DNA of 50,761 bases, from the sequence record OR896829.1. One strand, given 5' to 3'. The translations under genes and the position numbers were made by a program. The notes under the pieces were generated by a model. The model was given only the letters and a program-made list of their open reading frames with translations, was not told the DNA's origin and ran no database searches. Shown in pieces: positions 24,436 through 42,202 of this stretch (positions are counted from its first letter, which is position 1; the number at the start of each line of letters is the position of its first letter). The DNA is from Escherichia phage MatMar.

Positions 24436-24714
24436 TTAAGCCCATTCTCTAATAGGCTGATCTAACTCAACCACGTAGTCGTTAAAAATTACGGCATCAA
24501 ACTTATCATCAATGATTCGCACATTGACGAAATAGCCGTCGTTCTTTCTCGCAACCTCCTCGCCATCGTCAGTGACCGAAATTACCTTATATGTGTATCC
24601 AATTACATCAATCATGATTGCGTTTTGAAGTTCATCATTATCATGCCATTCTATTTCGTCCAGAAAGGCGGAAAACTCCGCCTTGTCTGCAAATTTAAGT
24701 GTTAAATCTTTCAT
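24436..24714 (-). CDS. hypothetical protein (possible fibre assembly factor)
   Basis: 92 aa acidic protein between the two fibre-related genes. Confidence 0.4.
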   Translation of the reverse strand: MKDLTLKFADKAEFSAFLDEIEWHDNDELQNAIMIDVIGYTYKVISVTDDGEEVARKNDGYFVNVRIIDDKFDAVIFNDYVVELDQPIREWA

Positions 24715-26702
24715 TAAACAATCTCCCCCATTTGATGATCTGTTAATGCTTTATGCCAGATTCTGAAGTTTCTAACGTGCCCGAAAAGGTGTCTCTCTCC
24801 AGTGTTTGTTTGTCCGCCAATCCTTATGGTCGCAGTAGATACAACGTGACTATAAGTTGCCTTTGCTGAAGATGATAGAACAGCGTTACAAAGTGCTTGC
24901 GTATCTCCATTTTCACCACATCTAAATCCAGCGATAAATTTTCTACTTGTTGTTTTTACATATTTATTGATTCTTCCTGATCCGTCTCCTATATCCACAT
25001 AAGGAGATCCAGTATCAACAGCCGAACCACCTCGCAAACCGTGAATTATCGCTTGCCCTTCCTTTTGCCCAGTGAAATCCATAATTCTCGGAGCTGCATT
25101 AGGTGGAGAGTCCCACTCCCAATTACGATGAACCTCACTCATTACCGTTAGCGGAAGATTGTAGATATTGTTTTTTATTGGGAGAGTTACAAGATCGCTT
25201 GCCCGTGTTACTGGATTTGCTTCTGTAATTATGAAAGAAGAAGCACAAGACCCTCCCTCAACTTGCGGAGTTGCAATATAAATGTAATCGTCGGCAGTGG
25301 TTGCAGCCCCCTTTTCAGGTGCATATTGCACCATTGCACCAATCATGCTTTCCTGTTCTAATGCTGTGATCGTGGCCTCAAAAAATATCCATTTGCTTGA
25401 TTCATCTCTTACTGCTCTTGCTGTTATCCTGTTTGCAGCACCGCCTGTTTTTTCTATTGACAAGTCCTCAAGTCCGAGATAAGCATCACCCAAAAAGGTA
25501 TATCCACTATCATTATAATTTTCAAATCTAAGCCTGCACCTTATGTTTCCTTTACCTCCCTTTACTCTGCATGAGATTGTTACTCTTTTTTCTTCACCAG
25601 TAACATCAAAACCCTTACTACCAGATACTGTAACTATGTTAATAGCCGATGTTTGCCCTACCATTTCTGGCTTCAATGTAAACTTGCCAAATGAAAAACC
25701 GAAATCATCAACTCCTGATTGGTTTAATACCATGTTTGATGACTTGTTCCATTTTGAAGGATTGGTGCTATTTATAAGAAGGTTTGTTCTTTGCCCCTCG
25801 ATGAGAAGACCATCCTTTTCAAATCTAGGTTCATCAATAGCAGCATTAGTAAGCACGCCAGACTTATTAATGTAAGTAGCGGTTGATGCTCGTTTAAATT
25901 TAACAATCTTGTCGCCTGGCATTGTGATCTCATCATCACCTATGACAATCTTTTTGTATGACGGCGAGAATCCCGTAATCATATCAAGCGAATCATTAAA
26001 CGGTATCCACACGTCAGGCAATGGTTGCAATAAATCTTTGTAAGGTTCTGCCGCCTGCTTTGCGTATTCCTCCGCTTTATCTCGCGCACTTTCAGCGCCT
26101 GCCTTTGCGGTGTTCGCAGCATCACGCGCGGATTCAGCGCCAGACTTTGCTGCTTCAGCGCCAGTCTTTGCAGTGTTTGCAGCGTCGCGCGCGGATTCAG
26201 CGGCAGCCTTTGCAGTATCAGCGCCTTTCTTGCTATTCGCTGCATTTGTTGCGCTTGTCTTCGCGTTATTCTCGCTGGTTTTAGCTGCCTGCTGGCTTGC
26301 TGCTGCTGCGTCAGCATTTGTCTTTACGTCTTCTTGGATCTTCTGTAGCTTATCCCAATCAAAATCCTTGATGATCTCAATAAATCCAGCAAGCTCCGAC
26401 TCTTTCCCCATGTAGTAGCGCAATGTTTCCGCTACGTCTTGCGCCAGGCCATCAACAGTTAACGAGTCATGAAGCAAGATTATGTAGTCTGAACGGGGAA
26501 CAACAGCACCACCAGTGGTGATTGCTCGAATGCTAGTATCGTTGACCACTTCGGTGATAACTGCGGCCTGTAGCGGCTGAGTCAGAAAAATAATGGTTGC
26601 GCCGGAACGGATCAGCGTTAACTGCTCACGCCAGTTCGTCCCGTAGCCAGTTATATAGCCTTGAGCGTCCATTGACGCTTGACCTTTGCGATAAATTGCC
26701 AT
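24714..26702 (-). CDS. side tail fibre protein
   Basis: 662 aa from ATG at 26702 with AGGAGA RBS (ORF track starts at GTG 26726); tandem Ala/Lys-rich repeats AESARDAANTAK x3; lectin/jelly-roll-like C-terminal half. Confidence 0.65.
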   Translation of the reverse strand: MAIYRKGQASMDAQGYITGYGTNWREQLTLIRSGATIIFLTQPLQAAVITEVVNDTSIRAITTGGAVVPRSDYIILLHDSLTVDGLAQDVAETLRYYMGKESELAGFIEIIKDFDWDKLQKIQEDVKTNADAAAASQQAAKTSENNAKTSATNAANSKKGADTAKAAAESARDAANTAKTGAEAAKSGAESARDAANTAKAGAESARDKAEEYAKQAAEPYKDLLQPLPDVWIPFNDSLDMITGFSPSYKKIVIGDDEITMPGDKIVKFKRASTATYINKSGVLTNAAIDEPRFEKDGLLIEGQRTNLLINSTNPSKWNKSSNMVLNQSGVDDFGFSFGKFTLKPEMVGQTSAINIVTVSGSKGFDVTGEEKRVTISCRVKGGKGNIRCRLRFENYNDSGYTFLGDAYLGLEDLSIEKTGGAANRITARAVRDESSKWIFFEATITALEQESMIGAMVQYAPEKGAATTADDYIYIATPQVEGGSCASSFIITEANPVTRASDLVTLPIKNNIYNLPLTVMSEVHRNWEWDSPPNAAPRIMDFTGQKEGQAIIHGLRGGSAVDTGSPYVDIGDGSGRINKYVKTTSRKFIAGFRCGENGDTQALCNAVLSSSAKATYSHVVSTATIRIGGQTNTGERHLFGHVRNFRIWHKALTDHQMGEIV

Positions 26703-26718
26703 CTGTAATTTTCTCCTG

Positions 26719-26738
26719 TATAGCACTTTTTGCTAATG
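26719..26738 (+). repeat. AAATAGCAC element (TTGCTA variant) abutting tail-fibre RBS, oriented opposite to the gene
   Basis: + strand reads tatagcactttttgctaatg; no -10-like box at N22. Confidence 0.55.
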
Positions 26739-34548: not shown

Positions 34549-34934
34549 TGAAACGAATCACAGCTATTGCACTGGCGGTTTTATTGTCCGGCTGTTCTGC
34601 TATAAGTCCAGTTGACCTACTGACCGGAAGTAAGCCAGATATTAGCGCCCAGGCTGGCGCGGAGAACGTGAAGCAGGCCGTTGGTATTACCGCAAAAAAA
34701 GACTCCAGCAGCAAGCAGGAAAACACCTTTAAAGAATCGAAGGTCGAAAAGGTGGATACATCCAGCAAGAAGACGGTTAAGGCATCAACCATTCAGGCCA
34801 ATACCATCAATGCGGAAAAAATCCAGGTTGTGCAGGGTGATAACGGCAGATGGTACGACCCGATAATCGTATGTTTTGCCACATTCGCCGTAATGCTTGC
34901 TATCTACTTCTGGACAAATAAAAAGGAGGCTTAA
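34548..34934 (+). CDS. unimolecular spanin (lipoprotein N-terminus plus C-terminal TMD)
   Basis: 128 aa; lipobox LLSGCS at N-terminus; C-terminal hydrophobic helix IIVCFATFAVMLAIYFW; last gene of lysis cassette. Confidence 0.55.
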   Translation: MKRITAIALAVLLSGCSAISPVDLLTGSKPDISAQAGAENVKQAVGITAKKDSSSKQENTFKESKVEKVDTSSKKTVKASTIQANTINAEKIQVVQGDNGRWYDPIIVCFATFAVMLAIYFWTNKKEA

Positions 34935-34948
34935 AGCCTCCTTTATTT
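34923..34948. terminator. bidirectional terminator-like hairpin between convergent operons
   Basis: aggaggcttaaagcctcct followed by tatttttaagc. Confidence 0.55.
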
Positions 34949-35167
34949 TTAAGCATCAGGCCATTCGTGTGAATGATTTGTTAGCTTCTGGTTTTCCTGA
35001 AATTCAATATCATAATGACCAGCCATTACGCGTTTAGCCATTTCCTCAACATATCCGACAGCTTGCTCGTGAGTCCAAGAGTCGGCTGGGAATTTTGTAG
35101 GGATCTCAGTGGTAGTGCCGTTTTCATGTTTGATAATCAGCGCCACGGTAAAAAATTTGTTGCTCAT
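34949..35167 (-). CDS. hypothetical protein
   Basis: 72 aa from ATG at 35167 with GAGGA RBS; last gene of leftward operon. Confidence 0.45.
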   Translation of the reverse strand: MSNKFFTVALIIKHENGTTTEIPTKFPADSWTHEQAVGYVEEMAKRVMAGHYDIEFQENQKLTNHSHEWPDA

Positions 35168-35199
35168 TTTGTTTTCCTCATATTCGTTTCGATGAAACA

Positions 35200-35245
35200 A
35201 ATATACCCGACTATAAGCCGGGCGTTTTAACAAAAAGTGCTATTC
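35200..35245 (-). promoter_or_regulatory. AAATAGCAC module, hairpin spacer, TATATT at N22
   Basis: - strand: gaatagcactttttgttaaaac gcccggcttatagtcggg tatatt; box overlaps stop of upstream gene. Confidence 0.5.
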
Positions 35246-35437
35246 CATCCGCTTCACCGTAACCAGCAAGACACCATCATCATCACATAAATTGTGTTCG
35301 GAAGTGTCAAAGGCACGCATATCCGATAAAAGCAGCGTAAGTAACGCATGAATGAAATCATCATGTGATATTGAATTTACGGCGCAAAATTTCAATATCT
35401 TGTCTATTAGACTTTGCTCCAAAGAGTTCATCATCAC
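35240..35437 (-). CDS. hypothetical protein
   Basis: 65 aa; AGGAGA RBS upstream of ATG at 35434; 5' part overlaps 3' end of upstream gene in another frame. Confidence 0.4.
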   Translation of the reverse strand: MMMNSLEQSLIDKILKFCAVNSISHDDFIHALLTLLLSDMRAFDTSEHNLCDDDGVLLVTVKRME

Positions 35438-35756
35438 TCATTTCTCCTATCCGTGCCATATCCCTTATCCATTCATTTTGCATTCCCTCAAAGGTGTAAA
35501 ATTCGAATCCGAACGGCCTACGGGCAGATCCGTCAATGCACCAAAATCTACCTTCAACGCCATCCAGATAACCAGCGCCCATCATTCTTGCGCAAAACTC
35601 TTTCGATAGCATGGAAGCGAACATGCGCGGGGTGAATCCGGCCTGCTTCGCCAGGCGTTCACATTCTCTGTGCTGATAGATAAATTTTGCAATGTGCTGA
35701 CGAGTAAACCAGTCGTAAGACTCACACCATCTGTAGAGATCCAGAATGAACATCAT
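35361..35756 (-). CDS. hypothetical protein
   Basis: 131 aa; start ATG overlaps stop (TAATG) of upstream 527-aa gene. Confidence 0.45.
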   Translation of the reverse strand: MMFILDLYRWCESYDWFTRQHIAKFIYQHRECERLAKQAGFTPRMFASMLSKEFCARMMGAGYLDGVEGRFWCIDGSARRPFGFEFYTFEGMQNEWIRDMARIGEMSDDELFGAKSNRQDIEILRRKFNIT

Positions 35757-37339
35757 TACCCCATTAACACAGGATTCACAAAAATAACACCATTAATAAC
35801 ACAAACGTAGTTTTTTTGCTCAAGCATCGGAAGCAGTTGCGATTCTATGCGCTTCATCACGCCAGCTTGCCCCAGGAAAGGTTTTACCTTGCGTGCTGCC
35901 TCATACAAAGCGCGGACATTCAATACGCCTTTATTTGCCTTACCGTGGCGGGTGATTAACTCAATCAGTTTTGACATCTCGGCATCATCACCAGCATAGC
36001 CGGACGCGTTCGCCGCGCTGATATACGTTTTGCTCAATTCATGGAACATCAGCAAGGCTTCTTGCATCGTGTCAACGTCAATCTCTCTAGACTTTTGCGG
36101 GTATCCAGCAGGATTAAACCAATTGCGTATCACATGCAGAACGGCAGCAATGCGGATCACCTGCTTATCCATTTTACCCAGCGCACCGCGTAGCATCGTA
36201 TGCGAATACTTTCCGCCGTCGGCAAGATGCGGTTCCATATCCTGGCGTGCAATGTTCAGCACGCGCATTGCAGAACGGCTAACTTTCAGAGAAACGTTAA
36301 TTTCGCTCATAATGTTATGCACCAACTGAAAGTATTGCGCTTTCAATTCACCGTCTACTGGTTCGTAAGTTGAATCACCATTCTCATCCACAAATACACG
36401 CGTACCGATTAACGGCTGTTCGCGCACCAGTAGAAAACGCTCGCTTACACCGATGCCACGAGATCCTGCATCCATGATGCCATTAATGGTTTCATCCTGG
36501 GCGATAACACTCATACATCCAAGCGCAAAAAAACTCATGTTATTGTCTGCATTAGAACGGGCGATAGAAACATGGCCGTGATCCCATGCTTTTAACACAA
36601 GTTCGCTGTTAGTTTTGCGCTCGCTATTCGCGTAAGTCAGGCCAAGCAGACTGTTAATACTGGTTGCTTCATCAGAAATAACCGCGAAGTTTCCTTGTCT
36701 GTTATTTATCTTTGCTAATCCCTCTGGTGTGGTGTCGGAGACAGGGAAAACAACATCGCAAAGTTTGCTTAGTTTTTCTTCCAGATCTTCTTTTTCTTGA
36801 TATAGAATCTCCATATCTGCGCCGGAGCGTTCGCTTTTCATCTCCTTTAGTAGTCCGGCAAGTTTTGCCTGTATCTTTTTCCGTTCCTTCTTGCGTTGCT
36901 CGTTGATGCGCTCAACTTCTGCAACCATAGGCGCAATAGCCAGACTGTTAATCGCGGATTTACCTGCCGACGGAGGCTGGCTTGTCACAACGTAAAGCGC
37001 GGTCGGCTGATCGGTTCCGTGGTAGTCAACTGTGAATCGACCAAGCATAGCGGCAGAAATACATCCGATAAAGTGCATGTAGGCCGATGATTCAGGGAAT
37101 TGAACAGATCTCGCAAGATTGCGCGCCAGCTTACCAACTACATCAACATCATTCCCAAGTGAAATGACAGGGTAGCGGTCGTTAGCGCCGTTAATATCTT
37201 CCACCTGGCCCCAATAGCTTGAAGATTGGCGGTATCCGTTGGCCTGAATGGATACACGAACAGGGGAAATACCTTGAGATTCGGCGGTTTCAATGATTTG
37301 TTTCGGTGATAACTGACTTGTTTCAAATGAAAAATTCAT
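35756..37339 (-). CDS. large early protein with P-loop-like motif (putative NTPase)
   Basis: 527 aa; deviant Walker A PPSAGKS and Walker-B-like AVISDEAT separated by charged coiled-coil-like insert. Confidence 0.4.
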   Translation of the reverse strand: MNFSFETSQLSPKQIIETAESQGISPVRVSIQANGYRQSSSYWGQVEDINGANDRYPVISLGNDVDVVGKLARNLARSVQFPESSAYMHFIGCISAAMLGRFTVDYHGTDQPTALYVVTSQPPSAGKSAINSLAIAPMVAEVERINEQRKKERKKIQAKLAGLLKEMKSERSGADMEILYQEKEDLEEKLSKLCDVVFPVSDTTPEGLAKINNRQGNFAVISDEATSINSLLGLTYANSERKTNSELVLKAWDHGHVSIARSNADNNMSFFALGCMSVIAQDETINGIMDAGSRGIGVSERFLLVREQPLIGTRVFVDENGDSTYEPVDGELKAQYFQLVHNIMSEINVSLKVSRSAMRVLNIARQDMEPHLADGGKYSHTMLRGALGKMDKQVIRIAAVLHVIRNWFNPAGYPQKSREIDVDTMQEALLMFHELSKTYISAANASGYAGDDAEMSKLIELITRHGKANKGVLNVRALYEAARKVKPFLGQAGVMKRIESQLLPMLEQKNYVCVINGVIFVNPVLMG

Positions 37340-37366
37340 TAAATCGACTCCTATTTGGTGCGGTGT

Positions 37367-37413
37367 ATGTTACCGCACCAATACTACCCTTATTTGTCAA
37401 AAAGTGCTATTTG
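37367..37413 (-). promoter_or_regulatory. AAATAGCAC module (TTGACA variant), hairpin spacer, TAACAT at N22
   Basis: - strand: aaatagcactttttgacaa N22 taacat acaccgcacc. Confidence 0.45.
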
Positions 37414-37628
37414 ATCCGCTCGATTGCAACCAGTAGGCGATCCGGCTGGCGGTCGCTGTAGCATTCTCCGGTTACATCATCCTTAAAAGTGAAGTAAAGC
37501 GACTTGTGATATGAATACCCAATCAGCCAACCTTCCGCAGTTCTCTTTATTGGCCTGACAATATCGCCAGGCTTGAAAGTTGCAGTTGTGGCGTGAGTTA
37601 CTTTATATCGGTATTCACTGCGGATCAT
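37407..37628 (-). CDS. hypothetical protein
   Basis: 73 aa ORF. Confidence 0.45.
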   Translation of the reverse strand: MIRSEYRYKVTHATTATFKPGDIVRPIKRTAEGWLIGYSYHKSLYFTFKDDVTGECYSDRQPDRLLVAIERIK

Positions 37629-38011
37629 GAATATTTGGCCTCAAAAAGATAAGAGTAACCAGCAGAGAATCCGACCTCCTCGCGGTAGAGCGTCCATCGG
37701 TCGCCGTCCTCATCGAAGACGTAACCAGCAACTGATCCAAGAACGCGACCCTGTTCGACCTGGTAACGCTTTCCAGCTTTAAAACTTTTTTTGGTTGCCA
37801 TCCGGTGATCAACAAACGTACATAGAATCGTCTTTGCCTTGATAGTGCGGTATTCGTCCTGGTTGGCTGATTCCCACTTCGCGCCCTTAGCCAGCGCCTT
37901 AACCTGAAATTCCTCCATCTCGATCACGTCGTCGCTGCCAGCTACTTTTGTGTAAACAGTTTTATAGCGACCGTTCATCAATTTGTTGTCGGAATTGCGG
38001 ATAACTTTCAT
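37625..38011 (-). CDS. hypothetical protein
   Basis: 128 aa ORF. Confidence 0.45.
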   Translation of the reverse strand: MKVIRNSDNKLMNGRYKTVYTKVAGSDDVIEMEEFQVKALAKGAKWESANQDEYRTIKAKTILCTFVDHRMATKKSFKAGKRYQVEQGRVLGSVAGYVFDEDGDRWTLYREEVGFSAGYSYLFEAKYS

Positions 38012-38043
38012 TTGATTTTCTCCAGTTGTTTTCGTTGAAACGC

Positions 38044-38089
38044 ATTATGCCCGACTCAAGGTCGGGCGTTTTAACAAAAAGTGCTATTT
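38044..38089 (-). promoter_or_regulatory. AAATAGCAC module, hairpin spacer, CATAAT at N22
   Basis: - strand: aaatagcactttttgttaaaac gcccgaccttgagtcggg cataat. Confidence 0.5.
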
Positions 38090-38794
38090 TGAGTTTTCCT
38101 CAAATACGGCGCGAGCAAATCCTCGCGGAGTGAGGGAGCGTATCATCTTTGTTCTGGATGATTTGCCACCAGTTTTAGCCCAGCCTGGGTTATCCTTCTC
38201 GGTTGGCAATACCAGTTTTCTCTGTGGAACGATAAAGCCGTTTCCAGTCCAAAGGCATGTTTTCTTAAAGTAGCAATCACGCGCCGGAATAATATCAGGG
38301 AAGTCTGGATGCTTATCATCTTCCGGCAGATAGCCAGCGTAATCGCACGGATGGAACGTATAATCAGGCTTTCGCCATAACGTTGACAACTTGCCAACCG
38401 GATTTTCGATCATGTAAGGAACACCGAAATAATCAGCTATATCAGCCGCGATTCTGCAAGTGTCGGCGGCCTCATCCTGGAACGATGGATTCTCAAGGCG
38501 TTTTTTAGCCCAATGGCGAGATCCGCTATTTGCAAGGTCAGTGCATGGTGGGAAGGCCATAATAAAATCAGGATTGCCCCACTCATTATTTATTGCCTTA
38601 ACATAAAAAGCATCGTCAATCCAGACGTTAACGTATTCGATATTCTCATGCTTTATGCGCACTGACTGGTAATCACCGTGATCGCCACCGTCAGCATTAA
38701 AGCAAATGCACTTATAGCCATTATCAGCCCAATCTTTAACGGCTTTACCAGATCCATCAAATAGGGAGAATATTAAACCTTTATACATCGTCAT
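38084..38794 (-). CDS. DNA cytosine-5 methyltransferase-like protein (short)
   Basis: about 236 aa from ATG near 38794; motif order FDGSG (AdoMet box), PPC (catalytic Pro-Cys), ENPVG (ENV box); ORF track start 38857 is TTG. Confidence 0.4.
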   Translation of the reverse strand: MTMYKGLIFSLFDGSGKAVKDWADNGYKCICFNADGGDHGDYQSVRIKHENIEYVNVWIDDAFYVKAINNEWGNPDFIMAFPPCTDLANSGSRHWAKKRLENPSFQDEAADTCRIAADIADYFGVPYMIENPVGKLSTLWRKPDYTFHPCDYAGYLPEDDKHPDFPDIIPARDCYFKKTCLWTGNGFIVPQRKLVLPTEKDNPGWAKTGGKSSRTKMIRSLTPRGFARAVFEENSK

Positions 38795-38798
38795 TACC

Positions 38799-39023
38799 TC
38801 AAAACGGAAAACAGCGCGCACAACCAGGATCGAAATCGCATCCACAATCATTAACAATCATAGTGGGATCTGCAAATATTGCGCTTGATTCAAGATCCAT
38901 ATCCATATCACCTAAAGCCTCATCAAGAGTCTTAAATTTATATGCCACTTCAAGCGCCGCCTCTTTATTTAGTCCGGCATCTTCTGCCATTTGAAGGCGC
39001 TCAAAAAAACCGTCCTGACTCAT
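38799..39023 (-). CDS. hypothetical protein
   Basis: 74 aa acidic protein. Confidence 0.45.
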   Translation of the reverse strand: MSQDGFFERLQMAEDAGLNKEAALEVAYKFKTLDEALGDMDMDLESSAIFADPTMIVNDCGCDFDPGCARCFPF

Positions 39024-39136
39024 CGCATAACTCCATTAATAACAGCCAAGATAATAGCCAGGCCAGCAGCAGTAACCAAAAATCCAACCGCGCCAATAAT
39101 CGAATAAAAAAAGAAATCAATAGCTTTATCTATCAT
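39020..39136 (-). CDS. possible 38-aa membrane peptide
   Basis: hydrophobic small ORF with GAGGTG RBS; stop overlaps downstream start; not in ORF track. Confidence 0.25.
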   Translation of the reverse strand: MIDKAIDFFFYSIIGAVGFLVTAAGLAIILAVINGVMR

Positions 39137-39178
39137 TTTCCACCTCATTTAAAAGGCGGCAAAACGCCGCCAGATTAA

Positions 39179-39406
39179 TTAAAGAGCGCGCCAACTTTGA
39201 ATATAGAAAGCGTTTTCTTCCAGTAATTCTTTTACCTGATCTTTATTGTATTTGCGCACCTTACCGCCTGGATGGATACCAATAAGATAGCCGCCTTTGC
39301 CCTCGGTGATAGTGATTTGGCTAATTCCACAAGACTTATCAAGTTTTACAGCCACGCGGTGATGAGCGTCAATAGTTGACATAATGTTTAAAACTTTTGC
39401 TTTCAT
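39179..39406 (-). CDS. hypothetical protein
   Basis: 75 aa; GAGGA RBS. Confidence 0.45.
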   Translation of the reverse strand: MKAKVLNIMSTIDAHHRVAVKLDKSCGISQITITEGKGGYLIGIHPGGKVRKYNKDQVKELLEENAFYIQSWRAL

Positions 39407-39514
39407 TTAAATATCCTCAATTGAAATATGAATGGCGTCGTGCTCTTTTTCCGTCGCCGCCGTAATGGTCATTTGCAACCGCCACCATCCAGGCATTTTT
39501 GAAAATAAATAGCC

Positions 39515-39727
39515 TCATTTCTTATTTTTCATCTTAAATTTATGGCCTGGAACACCAGCACCAATATATCCATCGTTGTATTCCATTAAATAAAGGTGAA
39601 GACCATTATCTGAAATTACATGAGGATCTTCTTTGAGATTTCCCATTAGTGGATATTCTTTTTCGCGCGTGAATTTCCAAATTGAGTTATAAGTTTCTAC
39701 GCATTTAAGTTTTAATTGCTTTGCCAT
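39515..39727 (-). CDS. hypothetical protein
   Basis: 70 aa ORF. Confidence 0.45.
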   Translation of the reverse strand: MAKQLKLKCVETYNSIWKFTREKEYPLMGNLKEDPHVISDNGLHLYLMEYNDGYIGAGVPGHKFKMKNKK

Positions 39728-39924
39728 TAGATGATCTCCATGTATGTTTCAAAGCCATTTAACTTGAACAGGCCGTTTTCACATTTGCGAACGTTCCAAG
39801 TTAGCCCTGAGTGGTACGCCTCCATATCATCAAGGTCAATGGTGATTTCAGCACCTTTCTTAAACAAACCTTTTTCGTGAGACTTGTCGCGCTTAACAAC
39901 TTTAACATCAACCTGATTTTCCAT
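39727..39924 (-). CDS. hypothetical protein
   Basis: 65 aa from ATG at 39924 with GAGGA RBS. Confidence 0.4.
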   Translation of the reverse strand: MENQVDVKVVKRDKSHEKGLFKKGAEITIDLDDMEAYHSGLTWNVRKCENGLFKLNGFETYMEII

Positions 39925-39957
39925 CTTTAAATCCTCGCATTCGTTGTCGATGCGTGT

Positions 39958-40003
39958 AATGTACAGGAACACGAGGATTGAGTTTTAACAAAAAGTGCTA
40001 TTT
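39958..40003 (-). promoter_or_regulatory. AAATAGCAC module, TACATT at N22
   Basis: - strand: taaatagcactttttgttaaaac N19 tacatt acacgcatcg. Confidence 0.5.
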
Positions 40004-40268
40004 AGTCCAGAAATTCGATTTCACGCTCGCCAGTTAACGGATCTACAAGCCAGAATCCGAGCGGTTCGCCGTAAACACCGCCATAGAATCCAAGCGCCGC
40101 CAGATCTTCACCTTTAACGAATACCAGGTTTCCGCTACGGCTTACGTGAGACACGTTAACGATAACCGGAAAGGTGCGATCCTTAAATGCAGGCATCAGG
40201 GCGTAACATCCTTTATTGAGCAAACGTGCTTTGCGCTTTACTGGAATAGGTGCATTGATACGTGCCAT
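40002..40268 (-). CDS. hypothetical protein
   Basis: 88 aa from ATG at 40268. Confidence 0.4.
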   Translation of the reverse strand: MARINAPIPVKRKARLLNKGCYALMPAFKDRTFPVIVNVSHVSRSGNLVFVKGEDLAALGFYGGVYGEPLGFWLVDPLTGEREIEFLD

Positions 40269-40480
40269 CAGTTGATTCTCCCATACAGATCGCAAACTTC
40301 GTTGATAAAGCAGAGTTGCGCCTCCTTATCTTGTTTCTCAAACATCGCACGGCACTCATATCGGTGATTATGCACAATGACTACAACCATATTTTCCTGC
40401 GCTAACGGGTGACGTGCGGACGCGTCGCAGATTGAAACATCCATACCCATCTCACGGGCTTTCTTGATCACATTAAGCAT
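40268..40480 (-). CDS. hypothetical protein
   Basis: 70 aa from ATG at 40480 with AGGAGA RBS. Confidence 0.4.
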   Translation of the reverse strand: MLNVIKKAREMGMDVSICDASARHPLAQENMVVVIVHNHRYECRAMFEKQDKEAQLCFINEVCDLYGRIN

Positions 40481-40734
40481 TTTTTCTTCTCCTGCAATAA
40501 GCAAACATCATTGATAAAATCAGCGCGGCCTTTAATGTTGCTGATGTGGAACGTCTTTTCAGCGTACAGGCCATCACCTTCAATCACGATCATTACGCGA
40601 GTCGGTTTGTTCACGGGCGCACATGAAAAGAGTGGGCGCACCGGAAGAAATTTAGTAGTCACATCCAGGTTAGACCTGGCCGCCCTGCAAAATGCCTCAG
40701 CCAGATCTAAATCATTTTCGGTAATCACCGCCAT
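40468..40734 (-). CDS. hypothetical protein
   Basis: 88 aa ORF. Confidence 0.4.
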   Translation of the reverse strand: MAVITENDLDLAEAFCRAARSNLDVTTKFLPVRPLFSCAPVNKPTRVMIVIEGDGLYAEKTFHISNIKGRADFINDVCLLQEKKKCLM

Positions 40735-41006
40735 TACTTCTTGATCTCCTCACTGATAAATTTCAGCACCCGGCGCAAGAAAACTTCGTTGTTGATAGTC
40801 GCTGGCAATTCTTCTTTCACCTCTTGCGGCAGATAGATATTGCCGTGCCAGGTCAAGCAATCGTAGTTGATACGATAAGAGCAAAGCCACTCGCAATCGT
40901 TATCTGCTTCCCAAATGCAGAGTTGCAGAACATCGCCTAAGTTCTCAACAGTCAGATCCAGACCGTGACGCTTAGCGAAATTGAAAGTGGTTTTGCTGAT
41001 GTTCAT
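40734..41006 (-). CDS. hypothetical protein (first gene of leftward early operon)
   Basis: 90 aa; AGGAGA RBS. Confidence 0.45.
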   Translation of the reverse strand: MNISKTTFNFAKRHGLDLTVENLGDVLQLCIWEADNDCEWLCSYRINYDCLTWHGNIYLPQEVKEELPATINNEVFLRRVLKFISEEIKK

Positions 41007-41041
41007 TTGCTATCTCCTGAGCGGTTTGTTTCGATGTGTGT

Positions 41042-41087
41042 AATGTACCCGATCAGAATGATTCGGTTTTAACAAAAAGTGCTATTC
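41042..41087 (-). promoter_or_regulatory. AAATAGCAC module, TACATT at N22, with no gene upstream of it
   Basis: - strand: atggaatagcactttttgttaaaac cgaatcattctgatcggg tacatt acacacatcg, then RBS and ATG 41006. Confidence 0.5.
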
Positions 41088-41681
41088 CATGCCTGGTGCA
41101 TTATTCCAGTTATTCCACGCTCAAAGAATAATCGGAATAAGTTGCTTAACTGTTAAATTGGTTAGTGTGATATGCGTTTACCAGGTTTTTCGATTGATTG
41201 CGTGTGTGATTAATCATGTGTGGCGGGGTGTATAGAAAGTAGTTGCCCTCTCGCCTCGTCCTGGTGGCGTCAGCAAACAGAAGCTGTTTATTTTGTTCGC
41301 GCGTGTTCGCGTTTCAGGGCGGCATGTTTCCGCGCTGTTTTTCAATGTATTGCGAACGCAAAAAACAAAATAAATCCCTTATAATACATTGAAAATAAAG
41401 AATATTTATTTATGTATATATTTATGTGTTATTTCTTGTTAGCGTTGTTAGTGTGGTATGTGATGGTTGCGGTGTCGCTTTGTTGGTATATATATGGATA
41501 GTTGCGCGCCTGGTGGAATGAGTATGTGTATATATACTTTTATTGCGATATTGCGCTAACAGCGCGAACAGAAAGAAAACAAGCGACAAAAACTTATTGC
41601 AAATCATGTTGTTATGTAGCGATTATCTCAAAACGTCGACAACGCGAACAGGCCGCGAACGTTATACGGACAAAATAAACA

Positions 41682-41709
41682 TTGACACGCATGAAATAGC
41701 AATTATAAT
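41682..41709 (+). promoter_or_regulatory. consensus sigma70-like promoter (TTGACA N16 TATAAT) for rightward early operon
   Basis: read directly; spacer contains AAATAGCA. Confidence 0.55.
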
Positions 41710-41740
41710 GGCCTGCAACTGACCAACAGGAGGAATGACA

Positions 41741-42202
41741 ATGAGTCAGAAAACATCGAAAGACTATTGCGACTGGTTGCGAGAGCTTGGTCGACGCCTT
41801 GCAAGCGGCGAGATTGTAGAGCATAAAATGTCAGTTCTCGACCTTGCCGGAATGTTAAACGGCGACGACTACTACAAGGTGACAAAGAATCAGGCATACA
41901 GCCGCACAATAATCAACCGCGTGCCGGAAGTGAAAGCGGTTGGAAAGGTGCGAATCAGAACGGAAGAAACGGAAGACGATAAGTTTTACGTTTTCAGCCT
42001 GAATCGCGACGTTAAGCGCAAGGTGATTACGAGCGAGGACTTGCCAGCAGTCCAGGCAAAGGCGGTTGAAAAGTTCGCCGCTCGCATTCTTGCATCAATG
42101 CCGAACGTTACCGACATGCAAGGCGATAAACTGGCTGGAGCTTGCGAAGGAATAAGTCGCTACCAGGAAATGATCCGCAATCTTGTTAACGAGGAGAAAT
42201 GA
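41741..42202 (+). CDS. hypothetical protein
   Basis: 153 aa from ATG 41741 with AGGAGG RBS. Confidence 0.45.
   Translation: MSQKTSKDYCDWLRELGRRLASGEIVEHKMSVLDLAGMLNGDDYYKVTKNQAYSRTIINRVPEVKAVGKVRIRTEETEDDKFYVFSLNRDVKRKVITSEDLPAVQAKAVEKFAARILASMPNVTDMQGDKLAGACEGISRYQEMIRNLVNEEK

Follow-up and report, generated by a model that had tools for sequence, protein, structure and literature searches.

A DUF3987-family protein of Escherichia phage MatMar as a probable MCM-like replication helicase

The 527-aa protein encoded on the minus strand of Escherichia phage MatMar (sequence record OR896829.1; "the window" is the whole stretch analysed, 50,761 nucleotides) belongs with near certainty to the DUF3987 family and is probably a T1-type, MCM-like (SF6, pre-sensor-II-insert) AAA+ ring helicase that unwinds DNA in phage replication. 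We base this assignment on family membership, fold, motif conservation, the primase-domain fusions found in relatives, and the genomic association with replication genes. Taken part by part, the analysis makes helicase activity as such highly probable and somewhat favours the part of fork helicase over that of an initiator-only enzyme or a recombination motor.

Family membership and relatives

The gene is an ATG-initiated ORF with an AGGAG Shine-Dalgarno sequence 8 nt 5′ of its start (Table 1), and it is the largest ORF in the leftward block 34949–41783, the runner-up being a 257-aa methyltransferase. A sequence-only reading had placed the largest protein of a leftward operon, carrying the motifs PPSAGKS and AVISDEAT, at exactly these coordinates, and both the ORF list and the motif positions (aa 122–128 and 219–226, respectively) agree with it.

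Table 1 Features of the helicase gene and of related loci in the window (residue numbers refer to the 527-aa protein; AF2, AlphaFold2).
Feature	Residues	Window position	Strand	Basis or content
Whole CDS, 527 aa	1–527	35756..37339	-	Predicted DUF3987-family MCM-like AAA+ helicase; orthologue of phage T1 ST9
N-terminal region	1–100	37040..37339	-	AF2 secondary structure
Walker A / P-loop QPPSAGKS	121–128	36956..36979	-	Alignment of 116 relatives
Charged antiparallel helical hairpin	127–192	36764..36961	-	AF2 helices 127–169, 173–192
Walker B AVISDE	219–224	36668..36685	-	Alignment of 116 relatives
Long beta-hairpin before sensor 1	253–280	36500..36583	-	AF2 strands 253–259, 268–280
AQDE, end of strand beta-4	280–283	36491..36502	-	Q281 115/116, A280 108/116
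GVSERF	297–302	36434..36451	-	G297 and R301 116/116, E300 108/116
Helical lid region	330–406	36122..36352	-	AF2 helices 330–344, 355–372, 381–388, 390–406
C-terminal winged-helix domain	451–527	35759..35989	-	
131-aa ORF, phrog_2794 (no assigned function)		35361..35756	-	PHROG 2794 E=6.6e-58
Upstream leader		37348..37411	-	Repeat copy 37392–37411, GC-rich hairpin 37357–37379, AGGAG 37348–37352
AATAGCACTTTTTGTTAAAA sites		6183, 9932, 20959, 35225, 37392, 38069, 39983, 41067	-	
AATAGCACTTTTTGTTAAAA sites		28287, 30804, 31843, 42463, 43854, 45046, 47824	+	
Stand-alone DNA primase, 320 aa		26832..27794	-	Pfam Zn_Ribbon_Prim E=1.9e-8; PHROG 510 E=3.5e-96
SF2 helicase, 679 aa		28363..30402	+	ResIII + Helicase_C; PHROG 16 'DNA helicase'

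In Pfam, residues 82–430 aligned with positions 3–349 of the 364-position profile PF13148 (DUF3987; E=1.1e-40), scoring 140.4 bits against a gathering cutoff of 27 bits, and the protein matched PHROG 2373 'DNA helicase' from end to end (E=3.8e-243); a search of NCBIfam gave no meaningful match. An exhaustive phmmer search of a 1.84-billion-protein library returned 2,005 representative clusters at E<=0.001 (151 at E<=1e-30), and by tblastn 921 phage records carry the protein—908 of them near full length—most belonging to T1-like phages of Klebsiella, Escherichia, Salmonella, and Shigella. With full-length homologues in these 908 records, and with the 2,005 clusters besides, the reading frame is no chance ORF. 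Among PDB sequences, a search with the protein alone returned nothing significant and one with a 116-sequence family profile only non-significant coiled-coil matches, to the charged hairpin described below; nor did a sequence search find a solved structure of any DUF3987 protein.

The gene is 99.4–99.6% identical in DNA to its counterparts in Escherichia phages Jahat_MG145, BabyEgg, and WaterSpirit (Drexlerviridae, Tempevirinae, Warwickvirus), and the protein is 99.6–100% identical to the deposited Jahat_MG145 protein; the labels in these three records vary between "hypothetical protein", "putative helicase", and "DNA helicase". ST9 of phage T1 (YP_003936.1; 'DNA helicase' in RefSeq) shares 59% identity over its full length and is encoded at the same leftward-strand position just beyond the lysis cassette, with orthologues throughout Drexlerviridae. 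Across their genomes, T1 and MatMar also share genes for a primase, an SF2 helicase, ExoVIII, Erf, and SSB. They show no substantial difference here; directly upstream of ST9, T1 carries an HNH endonuclease gene where MatMar has two small ORFs.

The gene is also present, at full length, in 21 unannotated GenBank 'Campylobacter phage' records with Campylobacter jejuni given as host (among them MG065636, MG065640, MG065641, MG065670, MG065671, MG065673, MG065679, and MG065685), with 78–79% identity in DNA and about 87% in protein. Because these sequences are those of T1-like enterobacterial phages, the host labels look doubtful, and contamination or mislabelling is possible.

The DUF3987 family was classed in 2016 by Kazlauskas et al. 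as a divergent, MCM-related SF6 lineage predicted to act as replicative helicases; its members are often fused or adjacent to AEP or DnaG primases, carry a C-terminal winged helix and include the replication-essential dns protein of phage N4, and an HHsearch link to MCM was described for another member (PMC4889955). Two years later, DUF3987 appeared in a list by Kazlauskas et al. of ATPase modules that take the place of MCM, RepA, or DnaB when fused to primases (PMC5862659). AgaPH, a PriCT-DUF3987 protein purified in 2025, is oligomeric, binds its cognate primase-polymerase, and unwinds 5′-tailed and forked DNA in the 5′->3′ direction with ATP or dATP, an activity abolished by Walker A or B mutation (PMC11724360).

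Like other DUF3987 proteins—E. coli CP4-57 prophage YfjI (the papers that name it offer no functional data), N4 dns, the SF6 protein of Mycobacterium phage Corndog, and AgaPH of Seonamhaeicola sp. S2-3—the MatMar protein combines Walker A and B motifs, a hairpin between them, and a C-terminal winged helix, and it comes, as they do, from a phage or mobile element that also encodes a primase. Unlike a typical member, it stands alone without a fused PriCT or primase domain, possesses about 60 clade-specific N-terminal residues, and has its primase roughly 8 kb off on the same strand rather than fused or immediately upstream. Distant members of the family occur as fusions with a DnaG CHC2 zinc ribbon, a PriCT-2, or a DnaB N-terminal domain, and alignments to distant relatives begin only at around residue 40–67 of the MatMar protein. 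The sequence-only reading had found that the protein did not look like the helicase. That judgement is not supported, given its DUF3987 and PHROG 2373 matches, the RefSeq label of its T1 orthologue, and the helicase activity of AgaPH (PMC11724360); the profile searches essentially place the protein in a characterised family, an outcome that this reading had itself named as a refutation.

Motifs, predicted fold, and charged hairpin

Conservation was counted in an alignment of 116 relatives with a mean column identity of 25%. The P-loop obeys a family signature, QPP[S/G]xGK[S/T], with K127 and S/T128 in all 116 sequences, Q121 in 112, and G126 in 103. The first Gly of the general GxxxxGK[ST] pattern is thereby replaced by Gln, so that an earlier description of this Walker A as deviant is apt for that one position, while within DUF3987 the arrangement is the norm. 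In Walker B, E224 is equally invariant and S222 is found in 109 sequences, with D223 in just 54 of the 116 (A or S otherwise). [quoted passage not shown]

Near the turn of the long beta-hairpin preceding sensor 1, R261 is invariant and R264 is shared by 105 of the 116 relatives. By analogy with MCM topology, this element is a candidate pre-sensor-1 hairpin and the two arginines are candidate DNA-contacting pore residues. Position within the AAA+ fold likewise suggests Q281 as a candidate sensor 1, R301 as a candidate arginine finger (compare the 'SRF' motif of MCM), and R384 as a candidate sensor 2, the latter lying in the LRGALGKMDK stretch of the lid region (aa 383–392), where R384 occurs in 80 and K389 in all 116 sequences.

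An AlphaFold2 model built with 28 homologues reached a mean pLDDT of 87.7 and a pTM of 0.85. The N-terminal region comprises a small helical domain (helices 12–22, 26–34, and 37–42), a loop, and helices 67–79 and 83–98, the first ~60 residues being specific to the T1-like clade; in the model, residues 1–100 consist of helices and loop alone, with no OB-fold/zinc-finger collar. Searched against the PDB with Foldseek, the model found MCM subunits in all of its top 50 matches (best E=6.4e-6). In the structural ranking, other members of the same AAA+ clade come next (RavA, 10.7; BchI, 10.3; SCCmec Cch, 8.9; ComM, 8.4; BrxL, 8.4). A viral structure library returned DUF3987 proteins, helicases, and primase-polymerase or Toprim fusion proteins. 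The AAA+ core is of the MCM type, with a candidate pre-sensor-1 hairpin, and falls in the pre-sensor-II-insert clade.

At the level of sequence, the Pfam MCM profile PF00493 gave no match at E<=1, and the 116-sequence family profile, run against PDB sequences, recovered none from MCM at E<=10. Because it has neither an OB-fold collar nor a Pfam MCM match, we regard the protein as MCM-like in fold and outside the MCM family proper. Compared with archaeal and eukaryotic MCM (SF6, PF00493), it shows only 10–17% identity, is devoid of the N-terminal OB-fold/zinc-finger collar, and carries an additional helical hairpin following its Walker A helix. Also MCM-like and from mobile elements are the Cch helicases of staphylococcal SCCmec (DUF927, PDB 5dgk), which constitute a separate Pfam family with a structural match far weaker than that of MCM itself. 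Other types of ATPase core were considered and rejected. The DnaB/SF4 (RecA-fold) type had no DnaB_C match in Pfam, and the structural neighbours listed are AAA+ proteins and winged-helix domains rather than RecA-fold helicases; the core fell neither with SF3 (D5, P4 alpha, E1, large T antigen) nor with the initiator/loader clade (DnaA, DnaC, ORC, Cdc6).

The stretch between Walker A and Walker B, which includes EQRKKERKKIQAKLAGLLKEMKSERS (aa 147–172) and EDLEEKLSKL (aa 184–193), had been taken for a coiled-coil insert. Its charge is genuine: 41% of residues 128–196 (14 K/R plus 14 D/E among 69) compared with 23% for the whole protein. The model describes the segment better as an antiparallel helical hairpin, in which the Walker A helix runs on to a length of 43 residues, turns, and comes back as a 20-residue helix to strand beta-2; mean pLDDT in 10-residue blocks is 84–97 here (residues 121–200). 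Measured on an hmmalign alignment, the spacing from the Walker A Lys to the Walker B Glu is 67–105 residues in 143 relatives (median 97), the 96 of MatMar falling at the long end of this range, and the family profile consensus across the region is charged, heptad-like, and coiled-coil-like. By sequence and spacing, the hairpin is a family-wide DUF3987 feature, not one peculiar to MatMar. Since the connection between helix alpha-1 and strand beta-2 sits opposite the pore loops across the sheet in AAA+ topology, it would project from the ring periphery.

Gene surroundings and other replication genes

Immediately downstream, the start of a 131-aa ORF shares 1 nt with the helicase stop codon (TGATG), and the annotation of WaterSpirit displays the same arrangement. 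This overlap suggests translational coupling, arguing that the 131-aa product may be a partner protein of the helicase. T1 has a similar-sized ORF, ST10, at the corresponding position.

The leader contains one copy of a 20-nt motif, AATAGCACTTTTTGTTAAAA, that occurs 15 times in the whole window at <=3 mismatches (0.01 expected). The copies inspected (35200–41100) are intergenic, and their strand mostly agrees with the direction in which the genes around them are transcribed. Phage TLS has this element as a 21-nt repeat in 18 intergenic copies, its function being listed as an open question (PMC11447400). The leader copy, 53 nt 5′ of the helicase ATG, contains TTGACA; by reading of the sequence we saw no canonical -10 element at proper spacing in the leader, and the site is absent from the list of a promoter/terminator scan. 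As that scan gave counts for the operon no higher than for shuffled sequence, we claim no promoter here. Between the repeat copy and the Shine-Dalgarno lies an 8-bp GC-rich hairpin without a T-run, GGTGCGGT-aacatac-ACCGCACC, which could act in RNA processing or stability or in the control of translation; other copies of the repeat are likewise followed by GC hairpins of this kind (e.g., at 35205–35223 and near 38046–38070). A search of positions 34900–42000 for origin-like iterons yielded only the genome-wide intergenic repeat and short repeats at chance level.

Replication genes do lie elsewhere in the window, as had been supposed. The stand-alone primase covers only positions 8–316 of the 667-position phrog_510 'DNA primase' profile, which suggests a primase-only module whose P4 alpha-type helicase half was lost or never present; for its T1 orthologue, a similarity to the P4-type alpha replication protein is on record. 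The helicase that the sequence-only reading considered accounted for elsewhere is a different, SF2-type enzyme, so that MatMar possesses two unrelated helicase-family proteins. The SF2 helicase contains Cys-rich, zinc-ribbon-like segments (CPVC...C at ~aa 485–499; CG...C..C at ~aa 533–548) that are kept in Bas78 and Vibrio phage D93, and it is labelled merely 'hypothetical protein' in WaterSpirit, Bas78, and D93. A 670-aa ORF (24714–26726) considered as another helicase was rejected as a tail fibre.

The most distant relatives at full length are those of Bas78 and D93, and in both the DUF3987 gene resides inside a replication/recombination cluster. In Bas78 no more than ~0.8 kb separates it from the primase, with the SF2 orthologue and ExoVIII nearby; in D93 it lies directly 5′ of the SF2 orthologue, ExoVIII, and SSB. 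No DNA polymerase gene is apparent in T1 or TLS (PMC11447400), and MatMar too lacks a polymerase of its own. The literature on T1-like phages names the SF2 enzyme 'the helicase' and leaves the DUF3987 protein undiscussed. A paper on Retron-Eco11 and 'phage helicases' mentions neither T1, MCM, nor DUF3987, and the Druantia/Zorya escape mutants in the literature map to structural genes and concern other phages.

Role in phage replication

In the mechanism that we infer—for ring assembly, the tasks of single residues, the place and role of the charged hairpin, and the choice of this protein over host DnaB as fork helicase—the subunits would assemble into a ring in which ATP hydrolysis drives DNA unwinding during phage replication. 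ATP would sit at the subunit interface, attended by K127 of Walker A, E224 of Walker B, and Q281 as sensor 1, with R301 reaching it from the neighbouring subunit. Lining the central channel, the long beta-hairpin with R261 would exert traction on single-stranded DNA. The C-terminal winged helix would serve to bind either DNA or another protein as partner, and the charged hairpin off the Walker A helix may act as a docking or assembly arm on the outer rim of the ring. Together with the separate primase, the DUF3987 helicase would set up forks to be extended by host DNA polymerase III, recombination-linked replication being the task of the SF2 helicase and of the genes for ExoVIII, Erf, and SSB.

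Several points sit uneasily with this proposal. The distant primase departs from the typical family arrangement, T1-like literature reserves the name 'the helicase' for the SF2 enzyme, and the A or S in place of D223 in about half of the family makes for an atypical catalytic detail. Polarity is also uncertain: MCM translocates 3′->5′, whereas AgaPH, the one characterised DUF3987 member, works in the opposite direction. Bourque and Christensen, in T1 genetics of about 1980, reportedly described a requirement for host elongation dna genes; a literature search on the genetics of T1 replication and its reliance on host dna genes yielded no relevant paper. If dnaB were among the required host genes, the role of fork helicase would not fall to the 527-aa protein alone.

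SV40 large T antigen, papillomavirus E1, and P4 alpha recognise and melt an origin and load themselves. It is conceivable, if rather doubtful, that the MatMar protein is likewise an origin-recognising initiator helicase, its winged helix and/or N-terminal helical domain binding an origin that it would then melt in order to self-load. Neither the gene nor its vicinity, however, harbours iteron-like repeats beyond the genome-wide intergenic one—origin-like repeats were likewise not found in TLS (PMC11447400)—and the core matches MCM, whereas the matches to ORC, Cdc6, and DnaA span just 80–100 residues. An initiator role would be compatible with the replicative-helicase reading. The earlier suggestion of a replication initiator or loader thus survives in part: a replication function is best supported and could include an initiator-type role, but the ATPase does not belong to the loader/initiator clade.

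Recombination-dependent concatemer formation is typical of T1, and the protein could in principle be an accessory ComM/RuvB-like motor for recombination or branch migration, working on branches or D-loops while host DnaB or the SF2 enzyme drives the forks; we consider this unlikely. Least probable by far is a non-helicase AAA+ remodeller engaged in host takeover or counter-defence, be it a MoxR/RavA-like chaperone or a BrxL-like DNA-binding ATPase. The ranking of folds and the primase fusions make both of these readings less likely. Against a remodeller in particular, MoxR/RavA- and BrxL-type structures score well below MCM, the pre-sensor-1-type hairpin bears an invariant basic residue, the family is linked to primase and DnaB-N domains, and one DUF3987 member has demonstrated helicase activity (PMC11724360). 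Without recourse to the PADLOC library, no PADLOC-type or defence context was seen, and the host-takeover ATPase put forward at the outset found no evidence in its favour.

Returning to the MCM-like helicase, we tentatively envisage a hybrid replisome in which a ring of this archaeo-eukaryotic style, and not a DnaB-type one, opens forks for bacterial Pol III, the hairpin docking the primase or the host tau, SSB, or clamp loader; this is a speculative extension and rather less probable than the helicase assignment itself.

The core of the finding is already known, as the family has been described and orthologues are annotated as DNA helicases. For MatMar, a "mystery ATPase" gives way to a routine annotation, namely DUF3987/MCM-like DNA helicase, orthologue of T1 ST9, and the helicase function of the phage is not fully accounted for by the SF2 enzyme alone. 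DUF3987 is widespread—over 2,000 representative clusters and 921 phage records—yet a single member has been characterised biochemically. T1-like phages, easy to grow and without a polymerase of their own, would offer a convenient system for studying how a helicase of the MCM-like kind and a bacterial polymerase work together.
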